Assembly (NCBI GenBank): GCA_044892525.1
Contig: CM097887.1
Span: forward strand, 35,526,001 to 35,590,000
Origin: Schmidtea polychroa
Taxonomy: Eukaryota
Direction of reading: 5' to 3'
Length of the DNA stretch: 64,000 nucleotides
Below, piece after piece: positions 2,996 to 40,607 of the stretch. Position 1 is the first letter of the stretch. Every line of letters begins with the position of its first letter. Under the pieces are notes generated by a model, which did no database searches, was not told the DNA's origin, and was given only the letters and a program-made list of their open reading frames with translations. A program made the position numbers and the translations under genes.

Positions 2996-3557
2996 ATGTT
3001 GTGCTAGAATTGGTTTTGAACAGAAGTGGTTGAATCATGAATGAAAAACGTCCGGGCATAGCACACCGACATAACATCAAGTTGAGTTAAAATCAAACAC
3101 GTCCAAACATCAATTAAACCACCAAATAGAATCTACTCAACACAAAAATAATAAACAAAAAAATTAACTAAATTGAAACAAAAACAAAAAGTATTACATG
3201 AAATCCACTCAAACTCAACATAGTGTTGGGCTGAGTCGAAAATTTAATCGTTGAAAAATAGGAAAGTAAGGAAGTAGAACATTAAGAAAAATAATAATAA
3301 AATAAATAAAATCAGAAATAAAATAGAATAAGATATAAGGAAAATAATAAGTAAGACATAAGAATTAAAACAAAAAATAAAATTAAGAAAAGATTAAAAT
3401 AGAACAAGTTGACAAATAAATAAAGAGGAATTCAAGAAATAATAAGGAAATTAAGGAAATAAATAGAAAAACATATTAAAAATAAAGAAAATAAGGAAAA
3501 AACAACCTAAAAACAAGAAAATTATATTAAATTAATAGAAATAAGCGGTACTCAACT

Positions 3558-3692
3558 CTGATTGGTCCGCACAAATAAGAATTTGATATATATACAACTA
3601 CCAAAAACATTAAATTTACTGTTAACCCCGAGCATTTCATAGGTAAGAAAAATGTTTACTGTTGTTTACTGTTAACCCCGAGCATTTCATAG
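3558..3692 (+). promoter_or_regulatory. Candidate LTR promoter: inverted CCAAT (ctgATTGGt), TATA-like gatatatatac, duplicated 28-bp element and a GTAAG donor-like site
   Basis: ATTGG near 3561; TATATATA near 3586; tttactgttaaccccgagcatttcatag at 3615-3642 and 3665-3692; first copy followed by gtaag (3643). Motif pattern only. Confidence 0.35.
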
Positions 3693-6096
3693 ACATCTAC
3701 AACTCACGGAGACTTATTTCAAGGATCAGCAATACAAGTAGAGCAACAGTTAATTCGAAAAACTTCACAGCAATTCGAACTCAGTCACAGCAATCGACAT
3801 TCGACGAACTATCATCAGACTAATTTGGAACGACTAACGTTAATTTTCCGATTCAGCCTAATTCCATAGTAAGGGATTTTTATTTATGATATTGTTTTTC
3901 GAAGTTAATAGTAAATATGTATATTTAATGAGCAATTAAACTTTTAAATTTAACCAGACTCTCTTTTCATTTGGTCCTGAATAACGATTTTGATAAAGTA
4001 AATAATTTAAATGTTTAAAAGTATTTATTGGTAACAGGTGAACTCTTACATAATTTTTATGGATATTTATTTTGAAGTGATAGTTTTATGATTTCTAATA
4101 TTAACGAGAAACGTGGCGTTGAGATACTCCATGTCATGGTGTGAGGTGCCTTCGGGAGCTCAGCCGGTGGACATGGAGTATTTCAATCACGCAGCTAGAT
4201 TGGGCCGAAATGTGAAGGCTTCTTCACGGGTCCAATTGCTGAAGGACTTAAAATCTGTCGGAGTACCGAAATATAGACCGAAAGGAAACCTTCTGAAATT
4301 TTCGAAAATAGGATATGTGCTTCACAGCGACTGAGGGAGTTCTCATATTAACTCTGTATTGTCCAGAGTCGTCTTACAAGACATTCATGCCACTTCTGTC
4401 TATAAATCCGAACTTACCATGTGGGGGAAAATACCATTAAACATCCATCGCTGGCTTTTCTAACATATCGAGAAGTTGAAATTGCATTCGGTAGATTTTT
4501 GAAAAAGTAACTCTAATTTAGGTCATCTCTTTCAGATGCGACATTCAAATCCTAGCATATGATGAGGAATTTACAATAAGGGAAAAATAAAACATAAAAC
4601 CACAATAATACTGTATTCAATCACATATATTAACAAAATCTGGTAATACCCATTGAATAATTTTCATGCTGTTGCGTCGAAATATCCACTACTGAAATAT
4701 GCTTCATAGAGTCTAGTTGGCTGGTTCGTAGAGATCTTCCATCGTTCAAAAGCATCCAATATTGAGGAAATTACGAGTCGTAGTAAATAAATCCAACATC
4801 ATAAGCTCAGATGGGAATCGACACGCGATGTAACATTTGCAGTTCGCTCAGTACGGTTGATAGTTACAGATAAAATTTCCATCGAATAGGCACCCATACA
4901 TACAGACATACTGCTAACATAACTATGAGTAGCGTCATCCGGTCAGAAATATGCATGAGAAACAGCAGAATCATTCCGAATGCCTCTCACCGCAGGGAAT
5001 GCCGCCATGTGTCACCCTCTCTAGGATTCTTAGTGTGTGAGTAGTAATCAGTGGTCCTATTAGATAATGCTGACATGAGATGTGACTTCCAGATGACTGA
5101 CTCTTAAATTTCACTACTGATAAAGGCCATTCGTACCACTAAAAAGATAAGCCAAATAACCAGTAACCGACTACTAAGATAAGGGACTCTCTAAAGTGCA
5201 CTCATTAAAGATAATTTTGCTTAAATTAAATATTCTAAATAAAAATCGAAATTGTTGAAGGGGTATTTTAATTAATAATCGAAAATTCAAACCAAACTTT
5301 ATAACTAAACCATAGGAAGTTTTACCTAAGTGTTGTAGAGGTTTATCGTAATTCTAATTAGATGTTACAAATAATAGTAGTAGCCTTCGAGCCAAATTTA
5401 AATTAACTAAAGTATCTACAGGAATTTTTGGGTTATAAAATAGCTAGTAATATTGTAGTTAAATTTCTCATATTCCCTGTAAATGACGTATTGTAATAGA
5501 AAACTAAATCCGATAACAAATTATTATGTAATTACAATATTTTTACGATGCTATATTTCTACGACGATATCACCATATGGTATGGATAAGGGGTAATCCT
5601 AAAATAGTGACGTATAGTTTATACGAAATTACGAGTCGTTACTTATTCCGCTACTTGAAGTGAGGGTGCAAGTTTTTACTAGTTGCATTTGGTCCAAAAA
5701 CCTTATTTTGCATTAGAATAACAACAAATAATCAGCGAAATTTAAACGAAGTGTAGTATAGTGTATTTGTAATGAAATAGGTTTATTCACTCCGGCATGA
5801 ACCAATCCGTCAATTGCCGTTATGTGCGATAGATAGAAATCCAACTCGAACGCGACAGACGAAAATTAAAATTTTTACAAATAATTTGCATTCGTCAGGG
5901 AAGCAATCAGGGCGTTGAGGAATAATTTTTGTAAAGGATACGTAAAATATTAGTAATCAAGGGTGAAGGGAAGGACCCTGTTTCATCGACTCGTCTTGTT
6001 TTCTTCCAGCACTAAGTATCCAATAGCGAATAAACCGTATATCTGATCCGAAATTTTTGGATATAGTCATCATAGTTTTCTTCTTTAGCCATCCAT

Positions 6097-6849
6097 ATGT
6101 TATCAAACCACAAATCAGCTCTACGTCCCTGCTTCTCCTGCTCAGATAAAAATGCAGTGATTACAGATCTCCAAGCCCAGATCGGTCGATATAAACGAAA
6201 AATCGACGAGCTGGAAGGGACATGGTTTAGTCCCGCTCGGATGAAGGAGATCCAAAAGAAGCTCGATCGCAGCGAGCATTGCCGGGACGCGCTAATATCT
6301 GAGAGCCGTGCCCAAAGAAGTCTAATCAGAGAACAATCCGAGGCACTGCATAAGGTTTACGTGCAGGCGGCTACAACCCGAAAAATTGTGCAGATTCCCA
6401 TCCGAGAGGCCGATGACATCTTTCCGCCTCATCACAACCTTTCCTCGAATCCATCTCCACCGTTCAAGAGACCGTGCCGAGACTGCGTCGAAACCGAATT
6501 TTCCCCCAAGCGACCAGATGTTGTCGTCACGGGTACCAGTAAGCCCCCCACTGCTAGTCCATCTGTACCTGTCACCCTTCTGCAAGTGGCATCTTCAAGC
6601 AAACCCAAGCGCAAACAACTCTCTCGTGCAGAGCGCAAGAAGAGACAGCGCGAACGCGCCACTACAAAGCCAAACATCCCATCAATAGAGGGTTCAACCA
6701 ACGGTGGTAACTCTCACGTGTCCATCGACCTAACAACGGGACCCTCAGCACGAATCGTATCAGCCGCTGGCGTAACGTGGGAAGAGAACGCTTCCGAGTT
6801 TTTTAACCTCGACGAATTATTCGCCGACGCTGAATGGGAGAAACAATAG
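6097..6849 (+). CDS. LTR-encoded 250-aa protein (coiled coil, basic NLS-like tract, acidic/aromatic C-terminus)
   Basis: Intact in both LTRs; preceded by pyrimidine-rich ttttcttctttAG and followed by AATAAA at 6973; KPKRKQLSRAERKKRQR; ends FFNLDELFADAEWEKQ. Confidence 0.7.
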   Translation: MLSNHKSALRPCFSCSDKNAVITDLQAQIGRYKRKIDELEGTWFSPARMKEIQKKLDRSEHCRDALISESRAQRSLIREQSEALHKVYVQAATTRKIVQIPIREADDIFPPHHNLSSNPSPPFKRPCRDCVETEFSPKRPDVVVTGTSKPPTASPSVPVTLLQVASSSKPKRKQLSRAERKKRQRERATTKPNIPSIEGSTNGGNSHVSIDLTTGPSARIVSAAGVTWEENASEFFNLDELFADAEWEKQ

Positions 6850-7390
6850 AACCCCAGTGGCGGTCAGGATGAAGAACAAGGATCCGATCTATGTTGATTA
6901 TGATGTTTTCTCTTCTTTCGACAAACATTAGTAAAGTGTACAGCTGAATCCTTGTGTCATAACGTTGAAATTAATAAATCTTGTTGTCTTGCACGTTTTC
7001 GTTCATGAATAATTAGACTTTAATTAAGTGGGTTGAGTAGAGAACCCGCCAGATCTAGTGAGAAATTCCCAATTTGTATTCAGCGAATCCTGATAAGTGG
7101 TTGTGTAAGGAAATGGACGTAAGCCCTTCTAACGGCAGTCGTGAATGGGAAGTCGAGGCCTCAGCAAGGAGTAGTTTTAAGGCAGAAGCTCACCTGCTTG
7201 CTGGCGTCTCGCCTGCATAGTGCAGTACCAACGTGAAGTGATTCACGGGCACTATGTTGGAAGAAAGTTATGTGGGGTTTCACTCCAGGTTGACAAATCG
7301 GTGGCACCTTTTATTCGAGATGGACAATCAACCCTTAGACCCGTCAACATGGTAGAGTGGTCAGCCGAGGTGTAACCCCAACATGATTTT

Positions 7391-7408
7391 TGGGGGCTCA
7401 GCCGGGAT
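7391..7408 (+). promoter_or_regulatory. Primer binding site, tRNA-Pro type
   Basis: TGGGGGCTCAGCCGGGAT is 16/18 identical to the classical tRNA-Pro PBS TGGGGGCTCGTCCGGGAT; 7 nt downstream of the LTR end. Confidence 0.88.
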
Positions 7409-7725
7409 CTACAGTCGATTGAAATTTCTATCAACGAATGCGAAATTTACCGGGATTTTCATACAAAATTAAAGGGATTTATCACATCGATTTTCTGTTT
7501 TCGACCAACCATTGCTTGACGAATGCAAATTGACTATTGATTATTAAATTATATTAGGAACTAAGTAGAGAAAATCAAAATGTGGATAATAGAAAAATTA
7601 AGGATATATATAAATAAAGGAGATAAAGTAGTCAAATTAAATAATTAACAAGGGTTAAAGAAACCAATTAACGAATTAACTATTAATTTACTACATATTA
7701 TTAAAACATTACTTTTCCAACAGCT

Positions 7726-8211
7726 ATGACAGAATTCGCGAACCAAATGCAACAACTGCTCAAGTTTATCGATATAGAAAACGACTCCCTAACAACACTG
7801 ACGCATAAAAGAGAAAAAATCAACGCGATATTACTACAAGCAATCGGACAAACACCAGTCGTACCTAATCATATGATATTAGCCACAGGCCTAAGTCGCC
7901 CAGATGGAAAAATAAACCCCGAAACCGTATATCAGTGGTATCAAGAGAGATTGAACCACCCAACATTAAATCTAGATTATCAGCGTCTAAAAGACTCACT
8001 AAATACAATACCAGATGCAATCGAACAAAAAATACAGGAAAAAGTTAACCAATTACGAACTTGTATAGCCTGTAAACTCCGTCCTATTCGCGTATTATTC
8101 TTGCCGTGTGGACACCTCAGTCACTGTGAAGAGTGTGTAAAAGACCTAAAAAGATGCACGATGTGCAAATATGAAATAAAAGAGACCCATATGGTCTATT
8201 ATGGCGAATGA
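7726..8211 (+). CDS. 161-aa protein with C-terminal IAP/MDM2-type C3HC4 RING (putative E3 ligase)
   Basis: CIAC-x10-LPCGH-x3-CEEC-x6-CTMC near the C-terminus, as in IAP RINGs; acceptor-like ttttccaacAG 2 nt before the ATG; AATAAA at 8316 and 8354. Confidence 0.85.
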   Translation: MTEFANQMQQLLKFIDIENDSLTTLTHKREKINAILLQAIGQTPVVPNHMILATGLSRPDGKINPETVYQWYQERLNHPTLNLDYQRLKDSLNTIPDAIEQKIQEKVNQLRTCIACKLRPIRVLFLPCGHLSHCEECVKDLKRCTMCKYEIKETHMVYYGE

Positions 8212-8818
8212 AACGGCCGGCGATGTAACAGCAAGTATACGATGTTTGAACAAGAATGCATGAAATTGTTGAAGTAACACGTACTGTTAATGATTCAATC
8301 TTTATGTTTATGATAAATAAATTCGTCTTTAAAAAGTTGTGATGATTAGGACTAATAAAATTTGCATGACGAATGAATATTTGCGTGTTTGTTTTGTTTT
8401 ATTTTTTTTTTTCGGAATCAAATGAAGAGAGGGTGGAATAACGTGGAATTAGTCCCAATATAGACTGCAGGGGTACAAACCGAGCCACCTTCGGGCGGTA
8501 CGTCTTATTGCAAGAACCCGTTGGGAGGGGATAACTGATCAACCCAAGTAAGAAGCGTAGGGCGGGGTACCATCGCATATGATGAGAAGTTTTTGCGACA
8601 TGACTGATCACCATGCCAATGTAGAAATGGATCATCGCGATCGTCGTGCGTTTTGAGCAAGGGGGGAAAGGGGAAACACTCCCAAGCGGTAAAGATTAAG
8701 TCGACAAATTAAAGTAGACAGAGAAAATGGTAAACTAGAGTAAAAGAAGAAAAGAGAAATAGAAGCATGCAGAGCGAGGAATATTGAAGCCGAGCTGTCG
8801 AATAATCCAGCTGGTCAA

Positions 8819-9598
8819 GGAGGAAGACTGAGCTGTTGAATAGTGCCAGCCAGTCGTAAGGTCGAGTTGTGAAAAGTCCAACCGATCAGGAAGGAGGAAG
8901 ACTGAGCTGTTGAATAGTGCCAGCCAGTCGTAAGGTCGAGTTGTGAAAAGTCCAACCGATCAGGAAGGAGGAAGACTGAGCTGTTGAATAGTGCCAGCCA
9001 GTCGTAAGGTCGAGTTGTGAAAAGTCCAACCGATCAGGAAGGAGGAAGACTGAGCTGTTGAATAGTGCCAGCCAGTCGTAAGGTCGAGTTGTGAAAAGTC
9101 CAACCGATCAGGAAGGAGGAAGACTGAGCTGTTGAATAGTGCCAGCCAGTCGTAAGGTCGAGTTGTGAAAAGTCCAACCGATCAGGAAGGAGGAAGACTG
9201 AGCTGTTGAATAGTGCCAGCCAGTCGTAAGGTCGAGTTGTGAAAAGTCCAACCGATCAGGAAGGAGGAAGACTGAGCTGTTGAATAGTGCCAGCCAGTCG
9301 TAAGGTCGAGTTGTGAAAAGTCCAACCGATCAGGAAGGAGGAAGACTGAGCTGTTGAATAGTGCCAGCCAGTCGTAAGGTCGAGTTGTGAAAAGTCCAAC
9401 CGATCAGGAAGGAGGAAGATTGAGCTGTTGAATAGTGCCAGCCAGTCGTAAGGTCGAGTTGTGAAAAGTCCAACCGATCAGGAAGGAGGAAGATTGAGCT
9501 GTTGAATAGTGCCAGCCAGTCGTAAGATTGAGTTGTTGAATAGTCCAACCGATCAGAAGGAAGAAGATTGAGCTGTTGAATAGTGCCAGCCAGTCGTA
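8819..9598 (+). repeat. Tandem array of a 74-bp unit, about 10.5 copies (8 identical), in the 5' leader
   Basis: Units start at 8821, 8895, 8969, 9043, 9117, 9191, 9265, 9339, 9413 and 9487; each unit is a 34-bp plus a 40-bp related half. Confidence 0.95.
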
Positions 9599-10855
9599 AA
9601 GGCCTAGAAAAGCGAGAGATAGCAGTTAAGCTACAATGAGATAATATTTAAATTACTAGTGATATGGAATATTAAAGCTAGCTAGAACAAATTGAATGTA
9701 ATTTTGAAAATTCGAGTTTAGAGAGGAAATAAACGAGCTCGTGGAAAAGAAAATAGGATTATAATGAAAAAGGAAAGGGAAGAAGGAAACGAATTAAAGA
9801 GATAATAGAAAATAAAGAATAGATGAAACGATGATAATGAGTAAAGAGGAAAGTAACTAACTAACTAAAGGGATCCCAGTGAAGTAGAGAAACTCTACGG
9901 AATATTTTTTTTGGTTAAACCGGGAAAATGCATTTTATTGGTTCCAGAGTAGAACCGAGCGTAATAATAGTGAATATGAAAAGTAAAATAGCGACAACAG
10001 CGCAAAAGGATTAGGAAAATGAAAGGGGGGTAATAAGCAGAGACCGACAACGACCTATTTTTACTATAATTGATAACGAATAGATAATTATTACGACTTT
10101 ATAGATAATTGTTACTACCCCATATAGATAATTTAAAATCGACGGAAAATACGGGCTGATGGGATATTATAACCCGCAGAAAGGATTTCACAAAAGATAG
10201 GGGAAGCACAAACAGAAACCTAAAAGGTGTCTGTTTTTGAACGTTGTAGAAAGAATGATGAAGTCGTGTAAGCAAATGCAACACGAGATCATTTTTTCAT
10301 TTTAGATATCAAGCCAATCCAGCCAACCAAGACAATCCAGAACCTGCACAAAAGGAATTCGAAGAAATCGACAATCAACCAAGGATAAATCCATTCAGAA
10401 CCCGCACCGAGAGACACAGCAACCGGAAGACTCCCGAACGGAAGAAGTATTAGCAGCCATCTGCCAAGGATTAGAAACACAATCAGAACCGAACGCGACC
10501 AATTCAATAGCCGCTAATTACCAAGAAGCGTAAGAAAGGAATCACGGATAAACCCAATCTTAGATCTTCAAGTAAGCCAGGAGACGTATTATTTTCAGGA
10601 GACGAATTACAACAACTCAAAAGAGGACGATCCATTAAACATCAAAGAGGAATATCACAAGGATCCAGAAGAACCAATCAAGTACCCATATTTGACCAAG
10701 AAAATCTCGGATATACCCCTAGTCGATCTCGAAGTAGAGAAAGTCTGTCCGATATCACTAATAGTTTAGCAACGTCAACCGAAGAATTATCAGCCCAAAG
10801 TTTAGTCACATCGTTAGACAATTTAAAAGAAACAGACGAACCTAGAACACCAATC

Positions 10856-11761
10856 ATGACGAATGTCGTAAAAACCGACGAGTATAAAGAGAAGTTCAGA
10901 GGAGAACCGTTCAACGGAAATGCAAACAAGCTAGCAACGTTCATAACTAATTTTGAAGTTTATATCACTGTGTGTGGATGGACACCCGAAGCAATTAGTA
11001 AAAGGATGCCGTTGTTTTTGTGCGATAGTGCATTAGAGGTATATTTAGAAGCTAAAGAGAGAGACACGAAATTAGAAAAGTGGGAAGATATTAAAACATT
11101 CCTGAAGAAAACCTTCGGAGCCAGTAAGCCAATCAACCAGGCGTTGGGCGAACTAGCAAATAGGAAACAAAGAGCAAACGAATCGATAACATTATATGCC
11201 AGTGAATTGCGGAGATTAGCGAAGAAAGCAATGAATGGAAAATTACCCGAAGAAAATCTGATCGGTTATTTCATAGAGGGATTACGCCGAGAAGAAGTAA
11301 GAGCCTCAGTAGGTTGTCAAATGTGCAAAACATTAGAGGAAGCCATAGATTGGGCTACAAGATGCGAGCTCCACCTTCCAGCTCAAATGAATATTATGCA
11401 AGAGGAGGGAAGGATAGCGACAGCAATAGCGAAAGCGGATAACGGAGATAACAACAATCAAGAACCGAAAATGAATCAATTTATACCAGGAGCGCACCAA
11501 ATTTTCAAACCACCACAAGGACGATCAAACGGGAATAATGGTAATCGTAACAACCCGAATAATGAGAACAATTTCAATAATCGGCGAAATATGAACGATA
11601 ACAAGCAGTGCCGAACATGCGGTAAACCAGGACACTGGGACAGAGATTGTTATAGAAATTCAAATTGTAATCGTTGCGGACGGCGTGGACATACCGAAAA
11701 TGTATGCCAATTGAGAGGCTGTTTTAACTGTGGTCAGCCAGGTCACATCTCCAGAGATTGC
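10856..11761 (+). other. Gag domain: capsid-like region plus three CX2CX4HX4C zinc knuckles (11609-11761)
   Basis: FNGNANKLATFITNFE..WEDIKTFLKKTF..QRANESITLYASELRRLA; CRTCGKPGHWDRDC, CNRCGRRGHTENVC, CFNCGQPGHISRDC. Confidence 0.9.
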
Positions 11762-14700
11762 CGAGAAAGGGGCCAACAACAACGACCACCACAGCGAAAT
11801 AATAATTATATAGCGAATCCGCAACGACAAAGTAACCCTAACGAAGGAAAACAAATGAACGTTATGCAGGAAATTTCGCAGATGAAACAGATGATGCAAC
11901 AAATGATGAGACCAAGACAAGAATCAGCACCACAACAAACCCAGAATATACGTATGATGAGGAGTACCGAAAATCTCAACAATTATGAAGTGCATCAACA
12001 TGTACAAGAATGGCAAAGGCTACAGGCCGAGGAAGAGAGGATAAAACAAGAACGCAACCAACAACGACAAGAACAACCATTGCGAATAAATATGATGAAG
12101 TTAGTAAAAGACATGAAGAGCCAGTATTGCTACAATTACGGGAAAAGCCCAAGGGTAGTACCCATGACTGAACCAGAAAAAGTAAAGGAAATAACAACGG
12201 AAATGAAAACAGAGAATTCAACCACGATTTCAAAAGGAAACCAGAGAATTCAGAAAATATTCTGGAAAAAGATAAAGGATAAAATCGAAAAAGAACATAA
12301 TAAAGCGAAAACTGAGACAGAAGATGAAAATAACAAGAGCGAGGAACAAACCAGTCAACTAAATCACCAAATGCTACAAGAATCAGAATCAGAAGAAACA
12401 ACAATATTCGAAAGAAAGAAACTAAAGAGAGTACCAAGGATGAGAAACTTGCAAATCAATATGATGAAAAGGACAAAAGATGTAGCATCGTCAGACGAAG
12501 AAGAAGATTATGTAAGTAGTTTGGGTGGAGAAATACTACAGCCGAATGAAATAAGCGAACCCTCAAAAGGGGAAATCAAAGAGGAAGAAAGCGGAAACGA
12601 GATAACCAGCGAAAGTGAAGACGAAGATATCGAAATAAAGTTGAGAAAAGCAAGGGAGGAAGCGATAAAACAGGTAGCCGAAATACTCCCAGTAGTAGTG
12701 AGGAACCAAGAGTTCATCGACGTAATACCATTCAGGCGATTCGTGCAAAAAGTGATGAAATTGGAAAGAAACGAGAAAGACCTAATACCAAACGAGGAAA
12801 AATCAATTATAAAAAATTATATGGAAAAAATGAAGCAGGCCGATACCACGCGGTATGTAATAAAAATTGGAACGAGTAGAGGACTTGAAAGAATGTGGAT
12901 AAAAAATACAGTCACCGACGAACTTTTCGATTGGATACGAGAACATTTGGGAAGTTCGAGAAAGAAAGAATATCTGTATCAATACCAAGGAGAACAGATC
13001 AAACCAGATATGCACTTAGTAGATGCACTAATATGGCCAGGAGAAACGCAAATACTGAAGTTGCATAAAGAAAAACAACCAGCCAACCTTTACGACTGGG
13101 CTAAAGATGCCAAGGCAGAATATGATTTTAATATCAAATTGAAATTAGAACAAATAAAACAATGTACTCTGAGACGAAACCTGGATAAGCTGATCAAACA
13201 AATTCAAGAACAAGTAGAAGACAACTGGGATTTACTCATCACCAGACGAGCCCCAGCCATGTACGAACTAATGAGCCGGTTGCGAGATACAGAAATGCTC
13301 CGAATGAGTGATTGGAGAACCATAAATTTGATCCACAAATATGGAAGGTTAAAAGAAACCCAGCCACAGAGGTTGGAAATAACCATATGGTTACCGAACG
13401 AAGAAAAACGACGAATAAAAATGAGCAATCAGAGTACAGTGGATGACTTGGTATCAAAAATAAACCAAGAGATAACGGAAAAGGTACGTAGCGAAAGTAG
13501 TGATGGTATGGTGGATGATGTAGTCATGATGTACGATAAGATAATATTACGAGCGGAGGACGACACCTCGTTAAGCGAAATGGGTATGTGGGACAATCAT
13601 CAGATAATCAGGATAGTACCAATGGATGAATTCCGAACAAGAGATGTAACATATCAAAAAGAAATACGAGACCGGATGAAAACGTTGTATCAAAAATCTA
13701 CAGAAATAATTGAAATCCACCAACAATGGTTAAAAGAAAAAGAGCTACAAGGAAAAATCACGAAATTAAATACCAGATCCTGCAGACGAACCCCATGGGA
13801 AAGAGTGTGGAATGCAGAAAATAAGGAATGGGAAATCCGGAAAGGAATCTTCGTAGAAACAGACATTGGTGAGACAGAAAGTGAATCGGAGGAAGAAGAA
13901 GAGGAACCTCCAGAATATGAAGAGGAAGCAAGGGAACAGACATCAGATGACGAAAGCGAGACGGATGTCACATCAGAAAGCGAAAATGAAGCGAGACATA
14001 TTCATGCAATGAGGAAAAAGGAACGTGAATATGCTGATATGGACGGCGAGGAAGCGACGGAAGCAAGAGAACGAGAAGAGAAAGAAAGATATAAACAATT
14101 AGGCGATATCTTAGCAATGGGAGCGAAAAATCAAAAACGCCAAGTAGTAGCGTTGGCTAACATCATCTTAAAGACATCAGAGAATATCCACAATCTGAGA
14201 GGAATGGCAAAGGCAATAGAGGAATACCGGCAATATAATGAATGGTATCCAGAACAGCTAGAACAAATTATTCGAAAATGGAGAAATCAGGAATGGGCAC
14301 AAGACACTCAGGAGAGGTATCACATCCGAATCAAGTATCCGGACAAGAGCATCGAGGAACTAGAGGTGCATCCAACAACAAAGATTAGAGAATTAAAAAA
14401 GAAATTAGCATATGAAACTCCATTCCATCTGCAACTGTTCGGAAAATCACTAGACGATAATGCAGACGTCGGGATAACACCCATGAGATTGGAAGAGACA
14501 AATGTGTTAACAATGGCAGAAACGTTGGGAAAACCGTTAAAAAGGAAAAGTAAAATTATTAAACCAACAAAAGGCAGTTTGAGTACTCCAAGTCCGAACA
14601 AAGCACCAAGTAAATCTAATGAAACTGAAGAAGTTGAAGAGATAATCCTGGAAGATAGTGACGATGAACCAGGAGAAAGATCACCGCTATTAGTGAGATG

Positions 14701-24709: not shown

Positions 24710-24869
24710 AAAGGAATATGACTGTATATAATTGTAAAAAGTAAGTATATCTTATGTATATAACAGTACTATATCTTTATATAAGCGCGGTATCAATATT
24801 ATACAATAACGGGAATCATAAAATAAAATTAAATTTACATAAGAGTTGAAAAGTGTATATAAATTAGGA

Positions 24870-25229
24870 ATGGATCAAGGAAATAACGAAATGAACCACA
24901 ATACAGTAACTGAAGAATTATGGAAGCAACAATGTGCCGTATTAGCACAATTAGTGTCCAATTTGCAAGAACAAGGACTGACGATGCACAGAAACCTGAT
25001 CGAGAGTATGAACAGAGGATTTAGTTATTTGAAGATAATTGAAGACCAGAGGTTAAAAATCGAACAAATGCAAAGAGAGATAGAGAGGATAACCCAATAT
25101 AGCCGTCGACAGGAAATTGAAATAGACAGAATGATGGAGGAAGCAGAACAGACAGAAATAGAAGACTGGTCGGAATGGCTAATGAATAGAGAGGAGAGCG
25201 GACACGAAGCCGACTCTTCCGAACCCTAA
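24870..25229 (+). CDS. Small coiled-coil protein with acidic C-terminus (about 119 aa from ATG 24870)
   Basis: ORF in element orientation; heptad-like LKIEQMQREIERI; ttAG just before the ATG, TGTAAATAAA after the stop. Confidence 0.6.
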   Translation: MDQGNNEMNHNTVTEELWKQQCAVLAQLVSNLQEQGLTMHRNLIESMNRGFSYLKIIEDQRLKIEQMQREIERITQYSRRQEIEIDRMMEEAEQTEIEDWSEWLMNREESGHEADSSEP

Positions 25230-25314
25230 ACCAAACCTAGCTTAAAATGTAAATAATTGTAAATAAAATATCGAACCTGTATCGATAAGAACTATTTGTA
25301 CATATAATTATAGA

Positions 25315-26703
25315 ATGGATAAACGACAAAGAGAAGAGTTCAGAGAGATTGTCGAGCAAGTCCGAAAATCTACAACGATCAGAATACACAAACATGTTAT
25401 GTGCGGAATATGTGAAAAGTTGTTAAAGGAACCTCACCAAACGCAATGTGGATGCAGAGTATGTAAAGAATGTATCAGTGAAGCAATAAAGAATAGACCA
25501 CAAAGGTGCCCGGTGTGTAAAGAGACACTAATATCGAGTTTAGAAGATACTAACGAGGATAAAGCCGCAGTGAAAGACATGTTAAACACCAACCTGGGAT
25601 GCAAAAATGCCCCATGCGAATGGAAAGGAGTAATATGGAAGGTAGTACAACATATGGGAGCATGTATGTACAGAATTGGCCAGTGTGAAAGGTGCCATAA
25701 AACCATTCGAGCAAGCGAAGAAAAAGAGCATCAAAGGCAGTGTGAAGAGAGATTGGAAAGATGTGAACACTGTGGAGAAATAGATACGTGGATAAATCTC
25801 ACCCTCAAACATCACAATGTCCAAGAGGAGAGAGTATGTGCAGAGTTCAGTGGGGAATGCCCAAACGGATGTAACCAAGGGGAAATAATGAAGGTGGCAC
25901 AGCATCTAAGAGAATGCGAAAAGAAAAGAATGACATGCGTACTAGGTAGATGGGGTTGTCAGAAATTACTACACCGAGGTGAGTTACCACATCATTTAGT
26001 AGAAAATGCTTCAACTCACGCAGAAATGTGGTCGACTGCGTTACAAGAAAGCGAAGAGAAAGTAAAACAAATGGAGATAGAGATAACATCGTTGAAAGTG
26101 TTAGTCAAAGAACTACTAGAAGAAAGGGAAGCGTTCGAAGAAGCCCGAGCAAACATAAAGATGCAAATAAACCGAACAGAAATTAGTAATAATCAGGCCA
26201 AGGAGCTACATCAGAAAATACGGGAAATAAATCTAAATGAGATAACCCCAACAGCACCCTACATATGGAAAATAACGGGAGTAAAAGAAAGAATACGAAA
26301 AGCAAAAACCGGAGAAGAGACAAGAATAACAAGTCCTACATTCCATTCTTGGAAAAATGGGTACAAAATGAAAATGAAGATATATCCCAACGGGGACGGA
26401 ACCGGATTAGATACGCACTTTTCGATTTTCTTTCTGTTATGTAAAGGAGAATACGACGAAATATTAGAATGGCCGTCCCAGGCAAAAATCGATATTACTC
26501 TGATGAACAACCAAAGTATATATGAGCAAAGCTTCAAAACAACGGGGAATCAAATAGCTTACCAGAGGCCCCTCAACGAAGAAGGATCAGCAACAGGAGC
26601 ACCTACGTTCATCTCACAACAAAGAGTAGAAGATATGGCGAGAAATGATACCATATATATCAAGATGACCGTGAGGAAAGAGGAGAAGGGTAGAACGGAG
26701 TAA
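25315..26703 (+). CDS. Full-length intronless TRAF-family protein (RING, TRAF zinc fingers, coiled coil, MATH/TRAF-C), 462 aa
   Basis: CGIC..L.EP.QTQCGCRVCKEC..CPVC; C.N..CEWKG..H...C zinc fingers; GYKMKMKIYPNGDGTG..THFSIFF..KGEYDEILEWP..G.PTFI..NDTIYI. Confidence 0.95.
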   Translation: MDKRQREEFREIVEQVRKSTTIRIHKHVMCGICEKLLKEPHQTQCGCRVCKECISEAIKNRPQRCPVCKETLISSLEDTNEDKAAVKDMLNTNLGCKNAPCEWKGVIWKVVQHMGACMYRIGQCERCHKTIRASEEKEHQRQCEERLERCEHCGEIDTWINLTLKHHNVQEERVCAEFSGECPNGCNQGEIMKVAQHLRECEKKRMTCVLGRWGCQKLLHRGELPHHLVENASTHAEMWSTALQESEEKVKQMEIEITSLKVLVKELLEEREAFEEARANIKMQINRTEISNNQAKELHQKIREINLNEITPTAPYIWKITGVKERIRKAKTGEETRITSPTFHSWKNGYKMKMKIYPNGDGTGLDTHFSIFFLLCKGEYDEILEWPSQAKIDITLMNNQSIYEQSFKTTGNQIAYQRPLNEEGSATGAPTFISQQRVEDMARNDTIYIKMTVRKEEKGRTE

Positions 26704-26896
26704 CCAATCGAATAATGTTGTATATAATAATCTGTATATATCGGTGTATATAACCAATAAAATATTATATAATAATAGTATGAAAACCCTAAATACGAAA
26801 ACCCAAAAATGATGCGAAAATTCCCCAAGAAACAGTAAATAATGAATAAATTCCTTTTTCATAATAAAAAGATTAATCGATGTCTATGATTTAGAG

Positions 26897-27952
26897 ATGA
26901 CACAAGAGAAAATAACCGAAACTGCGATAGACCCAACCAAGGTCAACAAGACACAAATTCCCCGAGAACATAACAAAAAATGGAACAAAGTAATGTTCCA
27001 ACTAACTAATCTCACCCGAAATCACATCGAAGAAACTAGAGAAGATGAGAATGGTCAATACCAATGGTTAATACACAACTTAAGAGCGGAAGCAGAAGCA
27101 TGCAAAAGAGCATCAAAATGGGCGTCACTGGAAAATACCCGCCAAGAAGCACACAGCCACTACTTAAAGCAGCTAGTGCAGGAAGCGAGAAAGAGACTTA
27201 CCGATGAGAACACCAAGCGCGAAGCGGAAAAGCAAATAGAAGACAGGAAAATGATGCACTTAGTGGCAGAAGCGAGAAAATGGAAAAGACAAAACAGAGA
27301 AATGAAAAAAGAGATGAAAGAATTGCCCATGAGACTCGGATACGAAAGCGAACAAGGTAAATGGGAGGAGAATTTAATAATAAAGGAAGAATTGAAAAGG
27401 TTGAGAAAGGTCGCCGCCCGAAGCCAAACCTGGCAAACAAAGGCTATGGAGTTTGAGCGACATTTGGCAATGAAGTGCGACATAAGAGAGCACGAGAATG
27501 CCGCAATGGAAGAGATGATAACCCAACAAGCGGGACGGGTTGTGGAATTAGTAAATCAGGTAGAAGAGATGAAAAGAGACCTTAATGGATTACAAGGATC
27601 GCTGGAACAAAGAAACATGGTCCTAGCGGGAAAAAACAGAAAATTAGAAAACGAAAGGAAAATGTACACCGAAAATATTAAAAACTTAGAAATAGAAATT
27701 GAAAAATGGAAGGGCGACGAGAAAATCAAAGCCCTAGACAAACAGATAGAGGCGAAAGATGAAGAGACAAGGTATCTCACCTATCTGCTCGACGAGGAAT
27801 TGAATATCACTCGAGCTCTAAGAGACGAAGTTAGTGAATTGAGAGCTCAAATTCCCCAATATTACCTACCATACGACCCTATTGCGATACAGTTACATTC
27901 CGCGGTCGATAGTGATGAAGGTTATGTAGGCCAGGAGGAAACCTTCGTATGA
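26897..27952 (+). CDS. 351-aa coiled-coil protein, unknown function
   Basis: Long ORF in element orientation, E/K/R-rich helical composition. Confidence 0.7.
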   Translation: MTQEKITETAIDPTKVNKTQIPREHNKKWNKVMFQLTNLTRNHIEETREDENGQYQWLIHNLRAEAEACKRASKWASLENTRQEAHSHYLKQLVQEARKRLTDENTKREAEKQIEDRKMMHLVAEARKWKRQNREMKKEMKELPMRLGYESEQGKWEENLIIKEELKRLRKVAARSQTWQTKAMEFERHLAMKCDIREHENAAMEEMITQQAGRVVELVNQVEEMKRDLNGLQGSLEQRNMVLAGKNRKLENERKMYTENIKNLEIEIEKWKGDEKIKALDKQIEAKDEETRYLTYLLDEELNITRALRDEVSELRAQIPQYYLPYDPIAIQLHSAVDSDEGYVGQEETFV

Positions 27953-28121
27953 GGGTGGATGAAAAGATGAAAAACTAAAAACCGGGACGTATATCCCAAA
28001 CAAAAAAATTAAAGTACAGTAAAAGTATTTGAGGGACTGTAACCCTGTGTAAATAAAAACGATATAAATGTATAAGTATAAGTCGCACTGTAGCGCATGA
28101 TTAATTGTAAATATTATAGAT

Positions 28122-28820
28122 ATGAAAATCGAGGAAATGATAGAAATTATGAGCGACGTAGAAGAGGGAGAGATTGAGGCAGGAACAACAGAAACACAAA
28201 CGCTAAAGGCCGAGTTACGGGAAGAGAAATACGAAAACGGGAGATTAATAAACAAATACCTGGAGGACCGGAAAATGATAAAGGTGTTAAAGAAAGAGTG
28301 CGAAGCGTTGGGGGAAATAAAAAGAGAAACGGAAGAGGAAAATGAATGGCTACACGAACAAAGGAAGCGAGGGAAAAACTGGGAAAAGATAGCGGAAGAA
28401 CTATGGAAAGAGAGGGCAAGCTTCAAAGCAAAGGAGGTAATCCAAGACTACTGGAAAACTGAGGCGAAGGAGCGCCAAACAGCTATAAATAAATTAAAAC
28501 GACAACTAGAAGAAAACCAACGGGAAAGTAAAGAAATGAGGAAGTGGGTCCGCAAATATAGAGAAATAGAAAGAAAACATCAACAACAAAATTACCTGCA
28601 AGAAAACGAACAAGATCTCCTACAAATCGAGCTAAAAAGAAACCTTGAAAAGAAAAGGGAAGAAATTAGACGCTTGGAAAAAGAAATTAGACATCTAAAG
28701 AGAGAAGCCCGTGAAAAAGACCGACAATTGGAAATGCTGCCCGAGTTAAGACACAGGGTAATTAAAGCAGAGTCCACCTTGATGAGAATCGGCGAAAATA
28801 ATCCAAATCAGAACCATTAA
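28122..28820 (+). CDS. 232-aa coiled-coil protein, unknown function
   Basis: Long ORF, E/K/R-rich heptads. Confidence 0.7.
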   Translation: MKIEEMIEIMSDVEEGEIEAGTTETQTLKAELREEKYENGRLINKYLEDRKMIKVLKKECEALGEIKRETEEENEWLHEQRKRGKNWEKIAEELWKERASFKAKEVIQDYWKTEAKERQTAINKLKRQLEENQRESKEMRKWVRKYREIERKHQQQNYLQENEQDLLQIELKRNLEKKREEIRRLEKEIRHLKREAREKDRQLEMLPELRHRVIKAESTLMRIGENNPNQNH

Positions 28821-28860
28821 ATTAAGGGTCATTAAAACCAATTGTAAATAAACATAATGA

Positions 28861-29517
28861 ATGTATAATAGTATCATGCGAGGCGAGATGATGATAACAA
28901 TGATGGTATTGATGATTCTGATGGAGAGCAAACAAATAGACGCCCAACCGAAAATCGTACGAGATTACCGAAATCAAAATCAAGAACCTAAACAAGAATC
29001 CAGTCAATGCACATACCCGATGACCGTAAAAACCCATATCATCCAAACCATTCAATCAACCCGATCACACATCAACAACATCCAAACAATGTGTAAAAAG
29101 AATCCCATTTGTAAAATGATAAACAAACAAATCCTCGAACAAATTCAACAATTCGACCAGTTGGAACAACAAATGCAACAAGAGAATTTTGGAAATCTGG
29201 TAGAAAAGCCAAAAATACCTCCCGAAATCAATGACACCCATTATCTCATATATGTGGTGATCGCAGAAACCCTCCTCCTATGTCTACCAATATTCATGAA
29301 AATTTACGAAGTTCGAAATAGATGTAGAGTCTCGACATCAATAAGAGTAACCTCGAACCAAAATCCTCAAGAAGTGCCCCTGACAAATCTTAACCGACCT
29401 CGAACCCCGAGTAATCAACCAATCCAGCCGAAATCTAATAGTCAGACCTATCTCAACATCAATACCCAAACCAACCAACAGCCGCCAGCAGAAGCATCAA
29501 TGGTTAACAGTTCATAA
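28861..29517 (+). CDS. 218-aa putative type I membrane protein (signal peptide, helical Cys-containing ectodomain, TM, Q/N/P-rich tail)
   Basis: MMITMMVLMILMES..IDA signal-like segment; TM YLIYVVIAETLLLCLPIFM; AATAAA at 29624. Confidence 0.7.
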   Translation: MYNSIMRGEMMITMMVLMILMESKQIDAQPKIVRDYRNQNQEPKQESSQCTYPMTVKTHIIQTIQSTRSHINNIQTMCKKNPICKMINKQILEQIQQFDQLEQQMQQENFGNLVEKPKIPPEINDTHYLIYVVIAETLLLCLPIFMKIYEVRNRCRVSTSIRVTSNQNPQEVPLTNLNRPRTPSNQPIQPKSNSQTYLNINTQTNQQPPAEASMVNSS

Positions 29518-29742
29518 ACTCTAATTCAAACATTTGTGTTATTATATGTGGAAACTTTTATTGTATGTATAAACTATCACCTTAAGTGATACTTGCTTGG
29601 TCTTGCTTTGACCTTGATCTTACAATAAAATTTTTATCATTGTTGTATAATTTTCCGTGTTAGTGTTATATTTTTTTTGAATGAATGAATTAAGTTAATT
29701 ATGCAATTGCGGGACGCAATTTTGATGGGTCCCCGAGTGATT

Positions 29743-32700
29743 TGTTGGGCTGAGTCGAAAATTTAATCGTTGAAAAATAGGAAAGTAAGGAAGTAGAACA
29801 TTAAGAAAAATAATAATAAAATAAATAAAATCAGAAATAAAATAGAATAAGATATAAGGAAAATAATAAGTAAGACATAAGAATTAAAACAAAAAATAAA
29901 ATTAAGAAAAGATTAAAATAGAACAAGTTGACAAATAAATAAAGAGGAATTCAAGAAATAATAAGGAAATTAAGGAAATAAATAGAAAAACATATTAAAA
30001 ATAAAGAAAATAAGGAAAAAACAACCTAAAAACAAGAAAATTATATTAAATTAATAGAAATAAGCGGTACTCAACTCTGATTGGTCCGCACAAATAAGAA
30101 TTTGATATATATACAACTACCAAAAACATTAAATTTACTGTTAACCCCGAGCATTTCATAGGTAAGAAAAATGTTTACTGTTGTTTACTGTTAACCCCGA
30201 GCATTTCATAGACATCTACAACTCACGGAGACTTATTTCAAGGATCAGCAATACAAGTAGAGCAACAGTTAATTCGAAAAACTTCACAGCAATTCGAACT
30301 CAGTCACAGCAATCGACATTCGACGAACTATCATCAGACTAATTTGGAACGACTAACGTTAATTTTCCGATTCAGCCTAATTCCATAGTAAGGGATTTTT
30401 ATTTATGATATTGTTTTTCGAAGTTAATAGTAAATATGTATATTTAATGAGCAATTAAACTTTTAAATTTAACCAGACTCTCTTTTCATTTGGTCCTGAA
30501 TAACGATTTTGATAAAGTAAATAATTTAAATGTTTAAAAGTATTTATTGGTAACAGGTGAACTCTTACATAATTTTTATGGATATTTATTTTGAAGTGAT
30601 AGTTTTATGATTTCTAATATTAACGAGAAACGTGGCGTTGAGATACTCCATGTCATGGTGTGAGGTGCCTTCGGGAGCTCAGCCGGTGGACATGGAGTAT
30701 TTCAATCACGCAGCTAGATTGGGCCGAAATGTGAAGGCTTCTTCACGGGTCCAATTGCTGAAGGACTTAAAATCTGTCGGAGTACCGAAATATAGACCGA
30801 AAGGAAACCTTCTGAAATTTTCGAAAATAGGATATGTGCTTCACAGCGACTGAGGGAGTTCTCATATTAACTCTGTATTGTCCAGAGTCGTCTTACAAGA
30901 CATTCATGCCACTTCTGTCTATAAATCCGAACTTACCATGTGGGGGAAAATACCATTAAACATCCATCGCTGGCTTTTCTAACATATCGAGAAGTTGAAA
31001 TTGCATTCGGTAGATTTTTGAAAAAGTAACTCTAATTTAGGTCATCTCTTTCAGATGCGACATTCAAATCCTAGCATATGATGAGGAATTTACAATAAGG
31101 GAAAAATAAAACATAAAACCACAATAATACTGTATTCAATCACATATATTAACAAAATCTGGTAATACCCATTGAATAATTTTCATGCTGTTGCGTCGAA
31201 ATATCCACTACTGAAATATGCTTCATAGAGTCTAGTTGGCTGGTTCGTAGAGATCTTCCATCGTTCAAAAGCATCCAATATTGAGGAAATTACGAGTCGT
31301 AGTAAATAAATCCAACATCATAAGCTCAGATGGGAATCGACACGCGATGTAACATTTGCAGTTCGCTCAGTACGGTTGATAGTTACAGATAAAATTTCCA
31401 TCGAATAGGCACCCATACATACAGACATACTGCTAACATAACTATGAGTAGCGTCATCCGGTCAGAAATATGCATGAGAAACAGCAGAATCATTCCGAAT
31501 GCCTCTCACCGCAGGGAATGCCGCCATGTGTCACCCTCTCTAGGATTCTTAGTGTGTGAGTAGTAATCAGTGGTCCTATTAGATAATGCTGACATGAGAT
31601 GTGACTTCCAGATGACTGACTCTTAAATTTCACTACTGATAAAGGCCATTCGTACCACTAAAAAGATAAGCCAAATAACCAGTAACCGACTACTAAGATA
31701 AGGGACTCTCTAAAGTGCACTCATTAAAGATAATTTTGCTTAAATTAAATATTCTAAATAAAAATCGAAATTGTTGAAGGGGTATTTTAATTAATAATCG
31801 AAAATTCAAACCAAACTTTATAACTAAACCATAGGAAGTTTTACCTAAGTGTTGTAGAGGTTTATCGTAATTCTAATTAGATGTTACAAATAATAGTAGT
31901 AGCCTTCGAGCCAAATTTAAATTAACTAAAGTATCTACAGGAATTTTTGGGTTATAAAATAGCTAGTAATATTGTAGTTAAATTTCTCATATTCCCTGTA
32001 AATGACGTATTGTAATAGAAAACTAAATCCGATAACAAATTATTATGTAATTACAATATTTTTACGATGCTATATTTCTACGACGATATCACCGTATGGT
32101 ATGGATAAGGGGTAATCCTAAAATAGTGACGTATAGTTTATACGAAATTACGAGTCGTTACTTATTCCGCTACTTGAAGTGAGGGTGCAAGTTTTTACTA
32201 GTTGCATTTGGTCCAAAAACCTTATTTTGCATTAGAATAACAACAAATAATCAGCGAAATTTAAACGAAGTGTAGTATAGTGTATTTGTAATGAAATAGG
32301 TTTATTCACTCCGGCATGAACCAATCCGTCAATTGCCGTTATGTGCGATAGATAGAAATCCAACTCGAACGCGACAGACGAAAATTAAAATTTTTACAAA
32401 TAATTTGCATTCGTCAGGGAAGCAATCAGGGCGTTGAGGAATAATTTTTGTAAAGGATACGTAAAATATTAGTAATCAAGGGTGAAGGGAAGGACCCTGT
32501 TTCATCGACTCGTCTTGTTTTCTTCCAGTACTAAGTATCCAATAGCGAATAAACCGTATATCTGATCCGAAATTTTTGGATATAGTCATCATAGTTTTCT
32601 TCTTTAGCCATCCATATGTTATCAAACCACAAATCAGCTCTACGTCCCTGCTTCTCCTGCTCAGATAAAAATGCAGTGATTACAGATCTCCAAGCCCAGA

Positions 32701-33902
32701 TCGGTCGATATAAACGAAAAATCGACGAGCTGGAAGGGACATGGTTTAGTCCCGCTCGGATGAAGGAGATCCAAAAGAAGCTCGATCGCAGCGAGCATTG
32801 CCGGGACGCGCTAATATCTGAGAGCCGTGCCCAAAGAAGTCTAATCAGAGAACAATCCGAGGCACTGCATAAGGTTTACGTGCAGGCGGCTACAACCCGA
32901 AAAATTGTGCAGATTCCCATCCGAGAGGCCGATGACATCTTTCCGCCTCATCACAACCTTTCCTCGAATCCATCTCCACCGTTCAAGAGACCGTGCCGAG
33001 ACTGCGTCGAAACCGAATTTTCCCCCAAGCGACCAGATGTTGTCGTCACGGGTACCAGTAAGCCCCCCACTGCTAGTCCATCTGTACCTGTCACCCTTCT
33101 GCAAGTGGCATCTTCAAGCAAACCCAAGCGCAAACAACTCTCTCGTGCAGAGCGCAAGAAGAGACAGCGCGAACGCGCCACTACAAAGCCAAACATCCCA
33201 TCAATAGAGGGTTCAACCAACGGTGGTAACTCTCACGTGTCCATCGACCTAACAACGGGACCCTCAGCACGAATCGTATCAGCCGCTGGCGTAACGTGGG
33301 AAGAGAACGCTTCCGAGTTTTTTAACCTCGACGAATTATTCGCCGACGCTGAATGGGAGAAACAATAGAACCCCAGTGGCGGTCAGGATGAAGAACAAGG
33401 ATCCGATCTATGTTGATTATGATGTTTTCTCTTCTTTCGACAAACATTAGTAAAGTGTACAGCTGAATCCTTGTGTCATAACGTTGAAATTAATAAATCT
33501 TGTTGTCTTGCACGTTTTCGTTCATGAATAATTAGACTTTAATTAAGTGGGTTGAGTAGAGAACCCGCCAGATCTAGTGAGAAATTCCCAATTTGTATTC
33601 AGCGAATCCTGATAAGTGGTTGTGTAAGGAAATGGACGTAAGCCCTTCTAACGGCAGTCGTGAATGGGAAGTCGAGGCCTCAGCAAGGAGTAGTTTTAAG
33701 GCAGAAGCTCACCTGCTTGCTGGCGTCTCGCCTGCATAGTGCAGTACCAACGTGAAGTGATTCACGGGCACTATGTTGGAAGAAAGTTATGTGGGGTTTC
33801 ACTCCAGGTTGACAAATCGGTGGCACCTTTTATTCGAGATGGACAATCAACCCTTAGACCCGTCAACATGGTAGAGTGGTCAGCCGAGGTGTAACCCCAA
33901 CA
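29743..33902 (+). repeat. 3' LTR (4,160 bp)
   Basis: Direct repeat of 3224-7383; followed by TSD ATAG. Confidence 0.97.
32616..33368 (+). CDS. Second copy of the LTR-encoded 250-aa protein
   Basis: Identical translation to 6097-6849. Confidence 0.7.
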   Translation: MLSNHKSALRPCFSCSDKNAVITDLQAQIGRYKRKIDELEGTWFSPARMKEIQKKLDRSEHCRDALISESRAQRSLIREQSEALHKVYVQAATTRKIVQIPIREADDIFPPHHNLSSNPSPPFKRPCRDCVETEFSPKRPDVVVTGTSKPPTASPSVPVTLLQVASSSKPKRKQLSRAERKKRQRERATTKPNIPSIEGSTNGGNSHVSIDLTTGPSARIVSAAGVTWEENASEFFNLDELFADAEWEKQ

Positions 33903-40500: not shown

Positions 40501-40607
40501 ATAAAGTTTGAAAATTATTGGCTTGAACTATAAACCAAATTAGGAAACAATAATTATTAAAAATGAAGTAAGAATTTTATTTTTAATTAATTTAATTTAT
40601 TGATTAT

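Follow-up and report, generated by a model that had tools for sequence, protein, structure and literature searches.

A giant Burro-type Ty3/gypsy element of Schmidtea polychroa with an envelope and accessory genes under purifying selection

The element and its closest described relatives

Giant gypsy elements named Burro are known from the planarian Schmidtea mediterranea, where they carry MATH/TRAF, BIR, ankyrin, BCL2-like and Ubi/SUMO modules and an in-frame envelope (env) region between gag and pol, and they have been proposed to be integrated proviruses meddling with apoptosis and ubiquitination (PMC6431247, 2019). BURRO1 transcripts rise in S. mediterranea upon SMEDWI-2 depletion, when PIWI silencing is lifted (PMC8532177), and flatworm GAG-ENV-POL elements, six of them from S. 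mediterranea (Smed_errantivirus_1-6), have been classed as herpes simplex virus (HSV)/gB-type (PMC13524379, 2026). Here we describe a related element in a 64,000-nucleotide (nt) stretch of the genome of Schmidtea polychroa (assembly GCA_044892525.1, contig CM097887.1, positions 35,526,001 to 35,590,000), hereafter the window, to whose forward (+) strand all coordinates refer. It is a Burro-type Ty3/gypsy element that is young, intact and recently copied. Already published are the set of cargo domains, the env lying in frame and the idea of an apoptosis-directed provirus; what is new is the measured selection, the layout across the membrane and, in the spacers between genes, an expression code that can be tested. 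On balance, we read it as an actively expanding element with a selected envelope and cargo, which probably moves between cells in enveloped particles and probably damps the death of the cells that produce them.

The element extends from long terminal repeat (LTR) to LTR over 30,679 nt (3224-33902), with exact boundaries and a 4-nt target-site duplication, ATAG, on either side (3220-3223 and 33903-33906). The two LTRs (3224-7383 and 29743-33902) are 4,160 nt each, with TG...CA ends (TGTTGGG...CCCAACA), and show 2 mismatches between them. The + strand carries every open reading frame (ORF), namely ORF1 of 4,617 amino acids (aa; 10856-24709) and seven smaller ones (the LTR ORF, the RING ORF and ORF2-6). 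These boundaries and the shared strand confirm the original prediction of an intact giant gypsy element with all its modules in sense orientation. TG...CA LTRs, a short target duplication, the order protease (PR), reverse transcriptase (RT), RNase H (RH), integrase (IN) and a Ty3-like RT place the element in Ty3/gypsy. Its length (>30 kb), an ORF1 of >4,500 aa and an env placed in frame after gag and before pol, behind BCL2-like and Ubi-like regions and accompanied by ankyrin and TRAF modules, are those of the Burro type (PMC6431247). The original prediction had also called the element a retrovirus, and here it has to be corrected: the element is of metavirus type and not a retrovirid, its env lies inside Gag-Pol, and it has neither a retroviral RT nor a class I env of its own behind pol. 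Searched against the PDB, the RT-RH region matched Ty3 RT at E=8e-94, compared with 3e-33 for the best retroviral RT.

The likeness to Burro1/GYPSM1 and Burro-2 to -4 covers the length above 30 kb, the long LTRs, the giant ORF1, the three-CCHC Gag, the Ubi/SUMO-like and BCL2-like regions, the in-frame env, the ankyrin repeats, the accessory ORFs and the tandem repeats (PMC6431247). The cargo whose novelty the original prediction had left to be checked domain by domain was thus already described for Burro in that paper, which also names a dUTPase-like region for which Pfam gave no match in the window element. Unlike Burro1, the window element has an ORF1 of 4,617 rather than 4,873 aa, carries MATH/TRAF outside ORF1 and has no BIR. 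The Burro1/GYPSM1 layout, with MATH in ORF1 plus a BIR, is instead found in a second family of the same genome, here family B, in which MATH lies inside ORF1 and a BIR+RING IAP is encoded downstream; compared by described layout, family B fits Burro1/GYPSM1 and the family of the window element (family A) stands as a sister to it. With Smed_errantivirus_1-6 the element shares a Ty3/gypsy pol, a gB-type env before pol and a multi-copy state, and by eye the printed env of Smed_errantivirus_5 is closest to the window envelope and that of _6 to family B; unlike them, its sequence is clearly not identical, and their table rows are without LTR or primer-binding site (PMC13524379). Anakin, a mosquito retroelement, is similar in carrying a chuvirus glycoprotein and different in belonging to BEL/Pao and not to Ty3/gypsy; no BEL-specific Pfam domain was found in ORF1. 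Complex retroviruses such as HIV, foamy viruses and walleye dermal sarcoma virus have accessory genes, one of them in the LTR, and multiple splicing. The window element resembles them in its accessory genes, one of which lies in the LTR, and in its likely multiple splicing, and differs from them in its Ty3-like RT and its class III-type env inside Gag-Pol.

Copies, selection and protein modules

Copies of the element were assessed in 150 scored of 10,040 candidate genome matches to the RT and in 92 scored of 1,911 to the TRAF ORF. All 150 scored RT copies were at least 98% identical, 56 of them with the same 4,732-codon frame and 63 with a frame of at least 4,700 codons. The 92 scored TRAF copies were all at least 94% identical; 91 were stop-free and one had a stop. 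In six other copies, the LTR pairs were 98.8-100% identical over the 1.4-1.7 kb compared. Selection was measured as pN/pS, the ratio of distinct non-synonymous to synonymous changes per site, in seven copies selected to be divergent. A value of 0.03 was obtained for each of G ectodomain, RT-RH and IN; the other modules gave Bcl-2-like 0.14, ankyrin 0.16, RING 0.16, TRAF 0.17 and ORF2/4/5 0.13-0.15, while the LTR ORF gave 0.27 with synonymous sites near saturation; the modules thus ranged from 0.02 to 0.27, except for ORF6 at 0.5. Two stops were seen among the seven copies, located in the tail of G and, in a different copy, in ORF6. Every module is therefore under purifying selection, with ORF6 weakly constrained and the envelope constrained like RT. 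The original prediction would have fallen had the accessory ORFs been decayed in other copies, with dN/dS near 1 and frequent stops; such decay was looked for and not seen, because the envelope and the accessory ORFs are under purifying selection. As a separate observation, copies 97-98% identical in ORF1 carry LTRs only 66-77% identical to the window LTR, and two LTR types on one internal region suggest LTR swapping.

Domains were called by a Pfam search of the window ORFs, with further labels from PDB sequence search, hydropathy and profiles of relatives. ORF1 reads Gag-(ubiquitin-like)-Bcl-2-like-signal-G-transmembrane (TM)-PR-RT-RH-IN-ankyrin-signal-ectodomain-TM. Its Retrotrans_gag domain with three CCHC knuckles lies at 11009-11764 and its enzymes, in Ty3/gypsy order, at 18044-21445 (Pfam; best structure match Ty3 RT). 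The envelope glycoprotein G (15710-17455) was recognized by PF24664 (E=1.9e-70, Pfam) and sits between Gag and protease; it is Monjiviricetes/chuvirus-like and gB-related, presumably of class III, with 14 cysteines and a TM anchor at aa ~2178-2196. In a PDB search with a profile of 60 G sequences, 33/34 matches were herpesvirus gB. An internal signal-peptide-like segment, assigned by eye here, precedes it (15641-15709) and passes the hydropathy threshold in family B and in a third group of relatives in the same genome, the sister family, so that a signal, a Cys-rich ectodomain and a TM segment, the parts of a gB/chuvirus-type env, are all predicted. A hydrophobic segment was also seen by eye ahead of G in 16/16 related polyproteins. 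The G ectodomain shares cysteines with stand-alone virus-type G proteins of ~650 aa and has one N-glycosylation sequon only; a furin-like site in G was rejected as a conserved feature, being missing from family B and the sister family.

Polyproteins with G before Pol, at 26-44% G identity, were also found in metagenome-type sources, several of them with extra aspartic-protease domains, and in 4/16 of the related ones a BH2-like GGW motif stands before the signal peptide. A separate locus has an ORF with G and protease in a stretch devoid of RT similarity, followed by a 475-aa ORF of no known family, and is possibly a non-autonomous env-carrying element.

A second signal-like segment, followed by a ~250-aa ectodomain of no family and a C-terminal TM segment, closes ORF1 (23708-24568). 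Family B and the sister family have the same C-terminal layout, and by hydropathy the order signal-G-TM...signal-TM is common to the three families. For this ectodomain the ESM Atlas gave no usable match and the PDB sequence search came back empty, in the window element as in the sister family; a fibronectin-III-like look was by eye only and unconfirmed. We infer that the two internal signal/TM pairs would keep all enzymatic modules in the cytosol.

Between Gag and G, a Bcl-2-like domain with a BH2-type GGW motif occupies 15032-15586. Four of five aligned relatives match PF00452 (best 1.5e-5), and the family profile matches the BH2 stretch of Bcl-xL (E=7e-4); searched alone, the window domain found nothing in the PDB sequence search and no usable ESM Atlas match. 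The ubiquitin-like segment (14276-14560) scored weakly (E=0.005) and is the only one of three candidates to do so, since the two others (12821-13660) gave no ubiquitin match. Behind the integrase, generic ankyrin repeats extend over 21533-23275 (Ank_2, E=1.5e-17). The modules named in the original prediction are thus all present, the Bcl-2-like and ubiquitin-like ones on weak or family-level evidence.

Among the smaller ORFs, the LTR ORF (250 aa; 6097-6849, with its 3' LTR copy at 32616-33368) matches no Pfam family above cut-off and remains open in a subfamily of LTRs with just ~66% identity. It is followed by the IAP-type RING ORF (161 aa; 7726-8211), for which 10/13 PDB matches were IAP RINGs, the best at E=2.4e-10. 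Downstream of ORF1 come ORF2 (119 aa, no family, pN/pS 0.13; 24870-25229), the full-length TRAF-like ORF (462 aa; 25315-26703), complete with RING, zinc finger, coiled coil and MATH, the charged, coiled-coil-like ORF4 (351 aa, pN/pS 0.14; 26897-27952) and ORF5 (232 aa, pN/pS 0.15; 28122-28820), and ORF6 (218 aa; 28861-29517), a predicted type I membrane protein with a signal-like start and one TM segment. Family B has homologues of ORF2, TRAF, ORF4 and ORF5 at 24-33% identity with the ORF order kept, and in family B TRAF matches were counted at 112 of 112 scored. The genome thereby holds at least 92 + 112 element-borne TRAF ORFs, which suggests that retroelement cargo makes up part of the TRAF expansion reported for planarians (PMC6109357).

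Other observations on these relatives concern exchange between them. Compared in bins of 100 aa, families A and B are 71-91% identical in RT-RH and 89% in the G membrane anchor, and 28-68% in other parts, and one family B copy is 81% identical to the window ORF1 from RT to integrase; this mosaic suggests recombination between the families. In addition, a TRAF-like gene lies 3 kb from an ORF for a protein-primed DNA polymerase B (L016:265-8194), and Polinton-type elements may here also carry TRAF.

Spacer motifs and splice-like signals

ORF2-6 are each preceded by a spacer, and the five spacers (40-193 nt; 647 nt in total) contain 12/12 of the sense matches to TGTA[ACT]ATA in the element. Spacers 1 (24710-24869), 2 (25230-25314) and 3 (26704-26896) hold three UGUAHAUA each, with an AG 2 nt, 1 nt and directly before the ATG, respectively; spacer 4 (27953-28121) holds two, with an AG 2 nt before the ATG, and spacer 5 (28821-28860) holds one. 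The count of 12 compares with 0.54 in shuffles, and 0/5,000 shuffles reached it; family B has 7 motifs in six spacers (76-160 nt) against 0.67 expected. Fixed motif positions were changed less often than other spacer bases, both in family A (6/84, 0.071, versus 93/543, 0.171; P=0.01) and in family B (2/49, 0.041, versus 194/627, 0.309; P=6e-6), and at position 5 of the motif 6/6 changes remained within A/C/T. The first motif lies 14-23 nt past the upstream stop in 9/11 spacers. UGUAHAUA is the consensus of the Pumilio response element. Being sense, conserved and free at its fifth base, the spacer motif has the pattern of a Pumilio-type element. A role of UGUA in CFIm-type 3'-end formation is disfavoured because planarian poly(A) signals are reported to have no UGUA ahead of them (PMC5068929).

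Across the two families an AG stands 0-3 nt before the ATG in 10/11 spacers, where the background frequency is 0.198; the RING ORF likewise has an acceptor-like AG 2 nt before its ATG, present in 5/5 copies looked at. Upstream, a splice-donor-like GAC|GTAAG near the end of the LTR (7116-7124), a candidate major donor, is retained in both LTR subfamilies. ORF1 itself starts 3.5 kb behind the LTR and behind a whole ORF; a pyrimidine tract with AG, resembling a splice acceptor, lies at 10290-10305, and the 550 nt from the AG at 10305 to ORF1 are free of ATG, likewise in 6/6 subfamily copies and in family B. Dinucleotide shuffles of this leader were without ATG in 3/1,000 cases for family B. Within the leader, an open extension lacking ATG is in frame with ORF1 and shows third-position-biased changes (115 codons; 10511-10855); family B has a coding-like extension of 103 codons, and each follows directly after a TAG. 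Homology of the two extensions was not significant (308/1,000 shuffles), and read-through of the TAG was rejected, with further in-frame stops upstream in family B and the frame closing at 10510 in the window.

The spacer signals point to one mRNA per ORF, probably made by cis-splicing rather than by spliced-leader trans-splicing. Contigs of a run guessed to be RNA covered 30/30 bins of 14200-29742, mostly at 90-95% likeness, and those of two other runs covered 14 and 2 bins; contigs carry no information on strand, ends or expression, the single joint of spacer 1 and TRAF also occurred in the DNA-type run, and these contigs were counted neither for nor against this view. No description of this spacer grammar was found in the literature, with Grohme 2018 and its supplements and Jurka 2007, which may cover Burro transcripts, outside the scope of the search.

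Proposed mechanism, alternatives and other loci

The mechanism that we infer takes its starting points from structure, copy number, selection, domain homologies and spacer motifs, which were read directly. Transcription would begin in the 5' LTR, and the donor near the LTR end would be cis-spliced to an acceptor ahead of every ORF, so that, as in complex retroviruses, each ORF has an mRNA of its own; the post-stop UGUAHAUA clusters may bind a PUF/Pumilio protein that sets the translation or stability of the element mRNAs. The polyprotein would be stitched through the endoplasmic reticulum membrane by its two internal signal peptides, so that the Gag, Bcl-2-like, PR-RT-IN and ankyrin modules stay in the cytosol while G and the second ectodomain enter the lumen, and would be processed by signal peptidase together with the protease of the element. 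G, as a putative class III-type fusogen, could carry particles into neighbouring cells, including stem cells bearing the germ line, and the Bcl-2-like, TRAF and RING proteins would influence cell-death and ubiquitin signalling rather than NF-kB in particular. The published idea of an apoptosis provirus rested on domain lists; selection on every module has now been measured, and exact testable sites are given for the possible expression of seven internal ORFs. Since a single genome holds dozens of copies with the full frame, an animal tractable by RNA interference is suited to questions of soma-to-stem-cell transfer and cell death.

Several observations weigh against this reading. The Bcl-2-like domain alone scores E=0.03-0.04 in Pfam, under the curated cut-off, and is without the NWGR BH1 motif. 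In the PDB search with the G profile, the gB matches were weak (E=0.006-0.39, 74 positions), and the top match was huntingtin, over anchor and tail positions. Pfam found no BIR domain in the window element, which therefore lacks the pairing of BIR and C-terminal RING that marks an IAP, and no canonical polypurine tract was seen by inspection before the 3' LTR; LTR pairs are nonetheless near-identical. The seven compared copies were mostly picked from open-frame ones, which biases intactness, not the synonymous excess. Spacer 5 is the sole spacer without an acceptor-like AG near the ATG, the acceptors of the accessory ORFs have poor pyrimidine tracts, the ATG-free leader is weakly significant in family A (81/1,000 shuffles), and the spacer tests in families A and B are not independent because the spacers are homologous. 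Finally, the sister family, which has many copies of a 3,334-codon frame (Gag-Bcl-2-like-G-Pol-membrane protein) and no motif cluster, has been amplified without the accessory array in 2/2 copies examined, which makes the array dispensable for transposition.

What the envelope and cargo are for can also be read otherwise. That the element is an intracellular retrotransposon, with G and the second membrane protein anchoring or budding particles at internal membranes and the ubiquitin/TRAF/ankyrin cargo serving assembly, trafficking or escape from silencing instead of a block to cell death, is possible though doubtful: Env is fused 1:1 into Gag-Pol, unlike retroviral stoichiometry, and the single sequon, the furin-like site missing in family B and the sister family, and the absent BH1 motif point the same way, but selection holds the ectodomain as tightly as RT (0.03), the ectodomain keeps cysteines in common with the stand-alone virus-type G proteins, and family B encodes a BIR+RING IAP. 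Bcl-2, IAP, TRAF and IkB-like ankyrin proteins are used by large DNA viruses (pox-, herpes-, baculo- and polydnaviruses) against cell death and immune signalling, and the analogy to the poxvirus and polydnavirus proteins, together with a full-length TRAF and ankyrin repeats under selection, could favour the interference with NF-kB that the original prediction had proposed, in which ankyrin and TRAF would form an IkB-like kit. We regard such a kit as improbable, given that 0/56 PDB matches of the ankyrin region were IkB or p105/p100, the repeats being generic and fused behind integrase, and that the Rel-homology genes of S. mediterranea are divergent, with no clear NF-kB homologue reported among them (PMC13563047); this arm of the prediction was not upheld. 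A Rel-homology search of the S. polychroa genome gave no match, and neither did its controls. To the idea that the accessory modules are neutral captured cargo we give next to no credence: ORF6, at pN/pS 0.5 and stopped in 1/7 copies, would suit it, and it is contradicted by the pN/pS of 0.02-0.27 of all other modules and by the homologous ORFs of family B, which are ~30% identical and stand in unchanged order.

The expression signals allow two further interpretations. Intercistronic distances have a median of 99 nt in S. mansoni (PMC12582326) and peak at ~100 nt in M. lignano (PMC8629364), and the array resembles such flatworm spliced-leader operons in having ORFs on one strand, separated by some 100 nt, and an acceptor ahead of every start (PMC12582326, PMC8629364), the distances being within 300 nt and accompanied by an acceptor AG; it differs in that those operons hold host genes, whereas this is a retroelement. 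The array could therefore be a eukaryotic operon, a long transcript cut and trans-spliced to the spliced leader at each AG, with the leader AUG starting the Gag extension. Spacers of 40-193 nt in family A and 76-160 nt in family B match the flatworm distances (PMC12582326, PMC8629364), flatworm leaders end in AUG, a coding extension of 103-115 codons without ATG follows directly after a TAG in both families, and the phase of the AUG ahead of the cis donor is not conserved. We nevertheless consider the operon rather unlikely, since the spacers show no excess of A[AT]TAAA (its count was reached in 191 and 555 of 1,000 shuffles), a cis donor is conserved upstream, the AUG of a leader would miss the reading frame at 7/12 acceptors, a TAG-bounded frame is often expected by chance, with a purine-rich context in family B, and near-cognate starts account equally well for the ORF1 extension. 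The fuller version, an infectious enveloped metavirus whose accessory operon is resolved by the host spliced leader, which would also supply the Gag AUG, and whose Pumilio sites would tie expression to the stem-cell state, appears unlikely; were it true, the mobile element would be built around host trans-splicing and PUF control. Alternatively, each ORF might have a small internal promoter of its own, with the spacer motif as its DNA signal, either a Forkhead site or a TATA-like box. GTAAA[CT]A is likewise enriched (6 and 7 versus ~1) and an ATG often follows the motif at 10-100 nt, but position 5, free among A/C/T, breaks the Forkhead core, the motifs are on the sense strand only, TATA[AT]A is not enriched and the first motif is nearly fixed at 14-23 nt past the upstream stop in 9/11 spacers, which leaves such promoters very improbable. 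For expression we thus keep to probable cis-splicing into one mRNA per ORF, with the spacer motif as a putative PUF-binding element.

The remaining features of the element lie in and near its LTRs. The last AATAAA of the LTR (6973-6978; 33492-33497 in the 3' copy) is a candidate poly(A) signal, and a tandem repeat of 74 nt x 10.6 occupies 8817-9599. Seven nt past the 5' LTR, a primer-binding-site-like 18-mer with a TGG start (7391-7408), putatively tRNA-Pro-like, has a 15-nt core with 2,679 exact genome matches against 0 for the control; in 10/10 loci looked at, no tRNA gene matching it was found. Tandem arrays of tRNA genes, spaced by a few hundred nt, occur on contigs C4 (~76.66 Mb), C140, C333 and C474 of the same genome.

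Beyond the element, the window contains an ORF for a hAT-type transposase of 768 aa with DUF4371 and a dimerisation domain (43303-45609) and, by eye, a transposase-like fragment (61438-62028). Polinton-like fragments at 39977-40459, 47283-47807 and 49275-49844 show a weak double-jelly-roll match (E=0.004) and polymerase-like pieces by eye, and the first of them is enclosed by a 70-nt inverted repeat (35605-35674 and 40515-40584).

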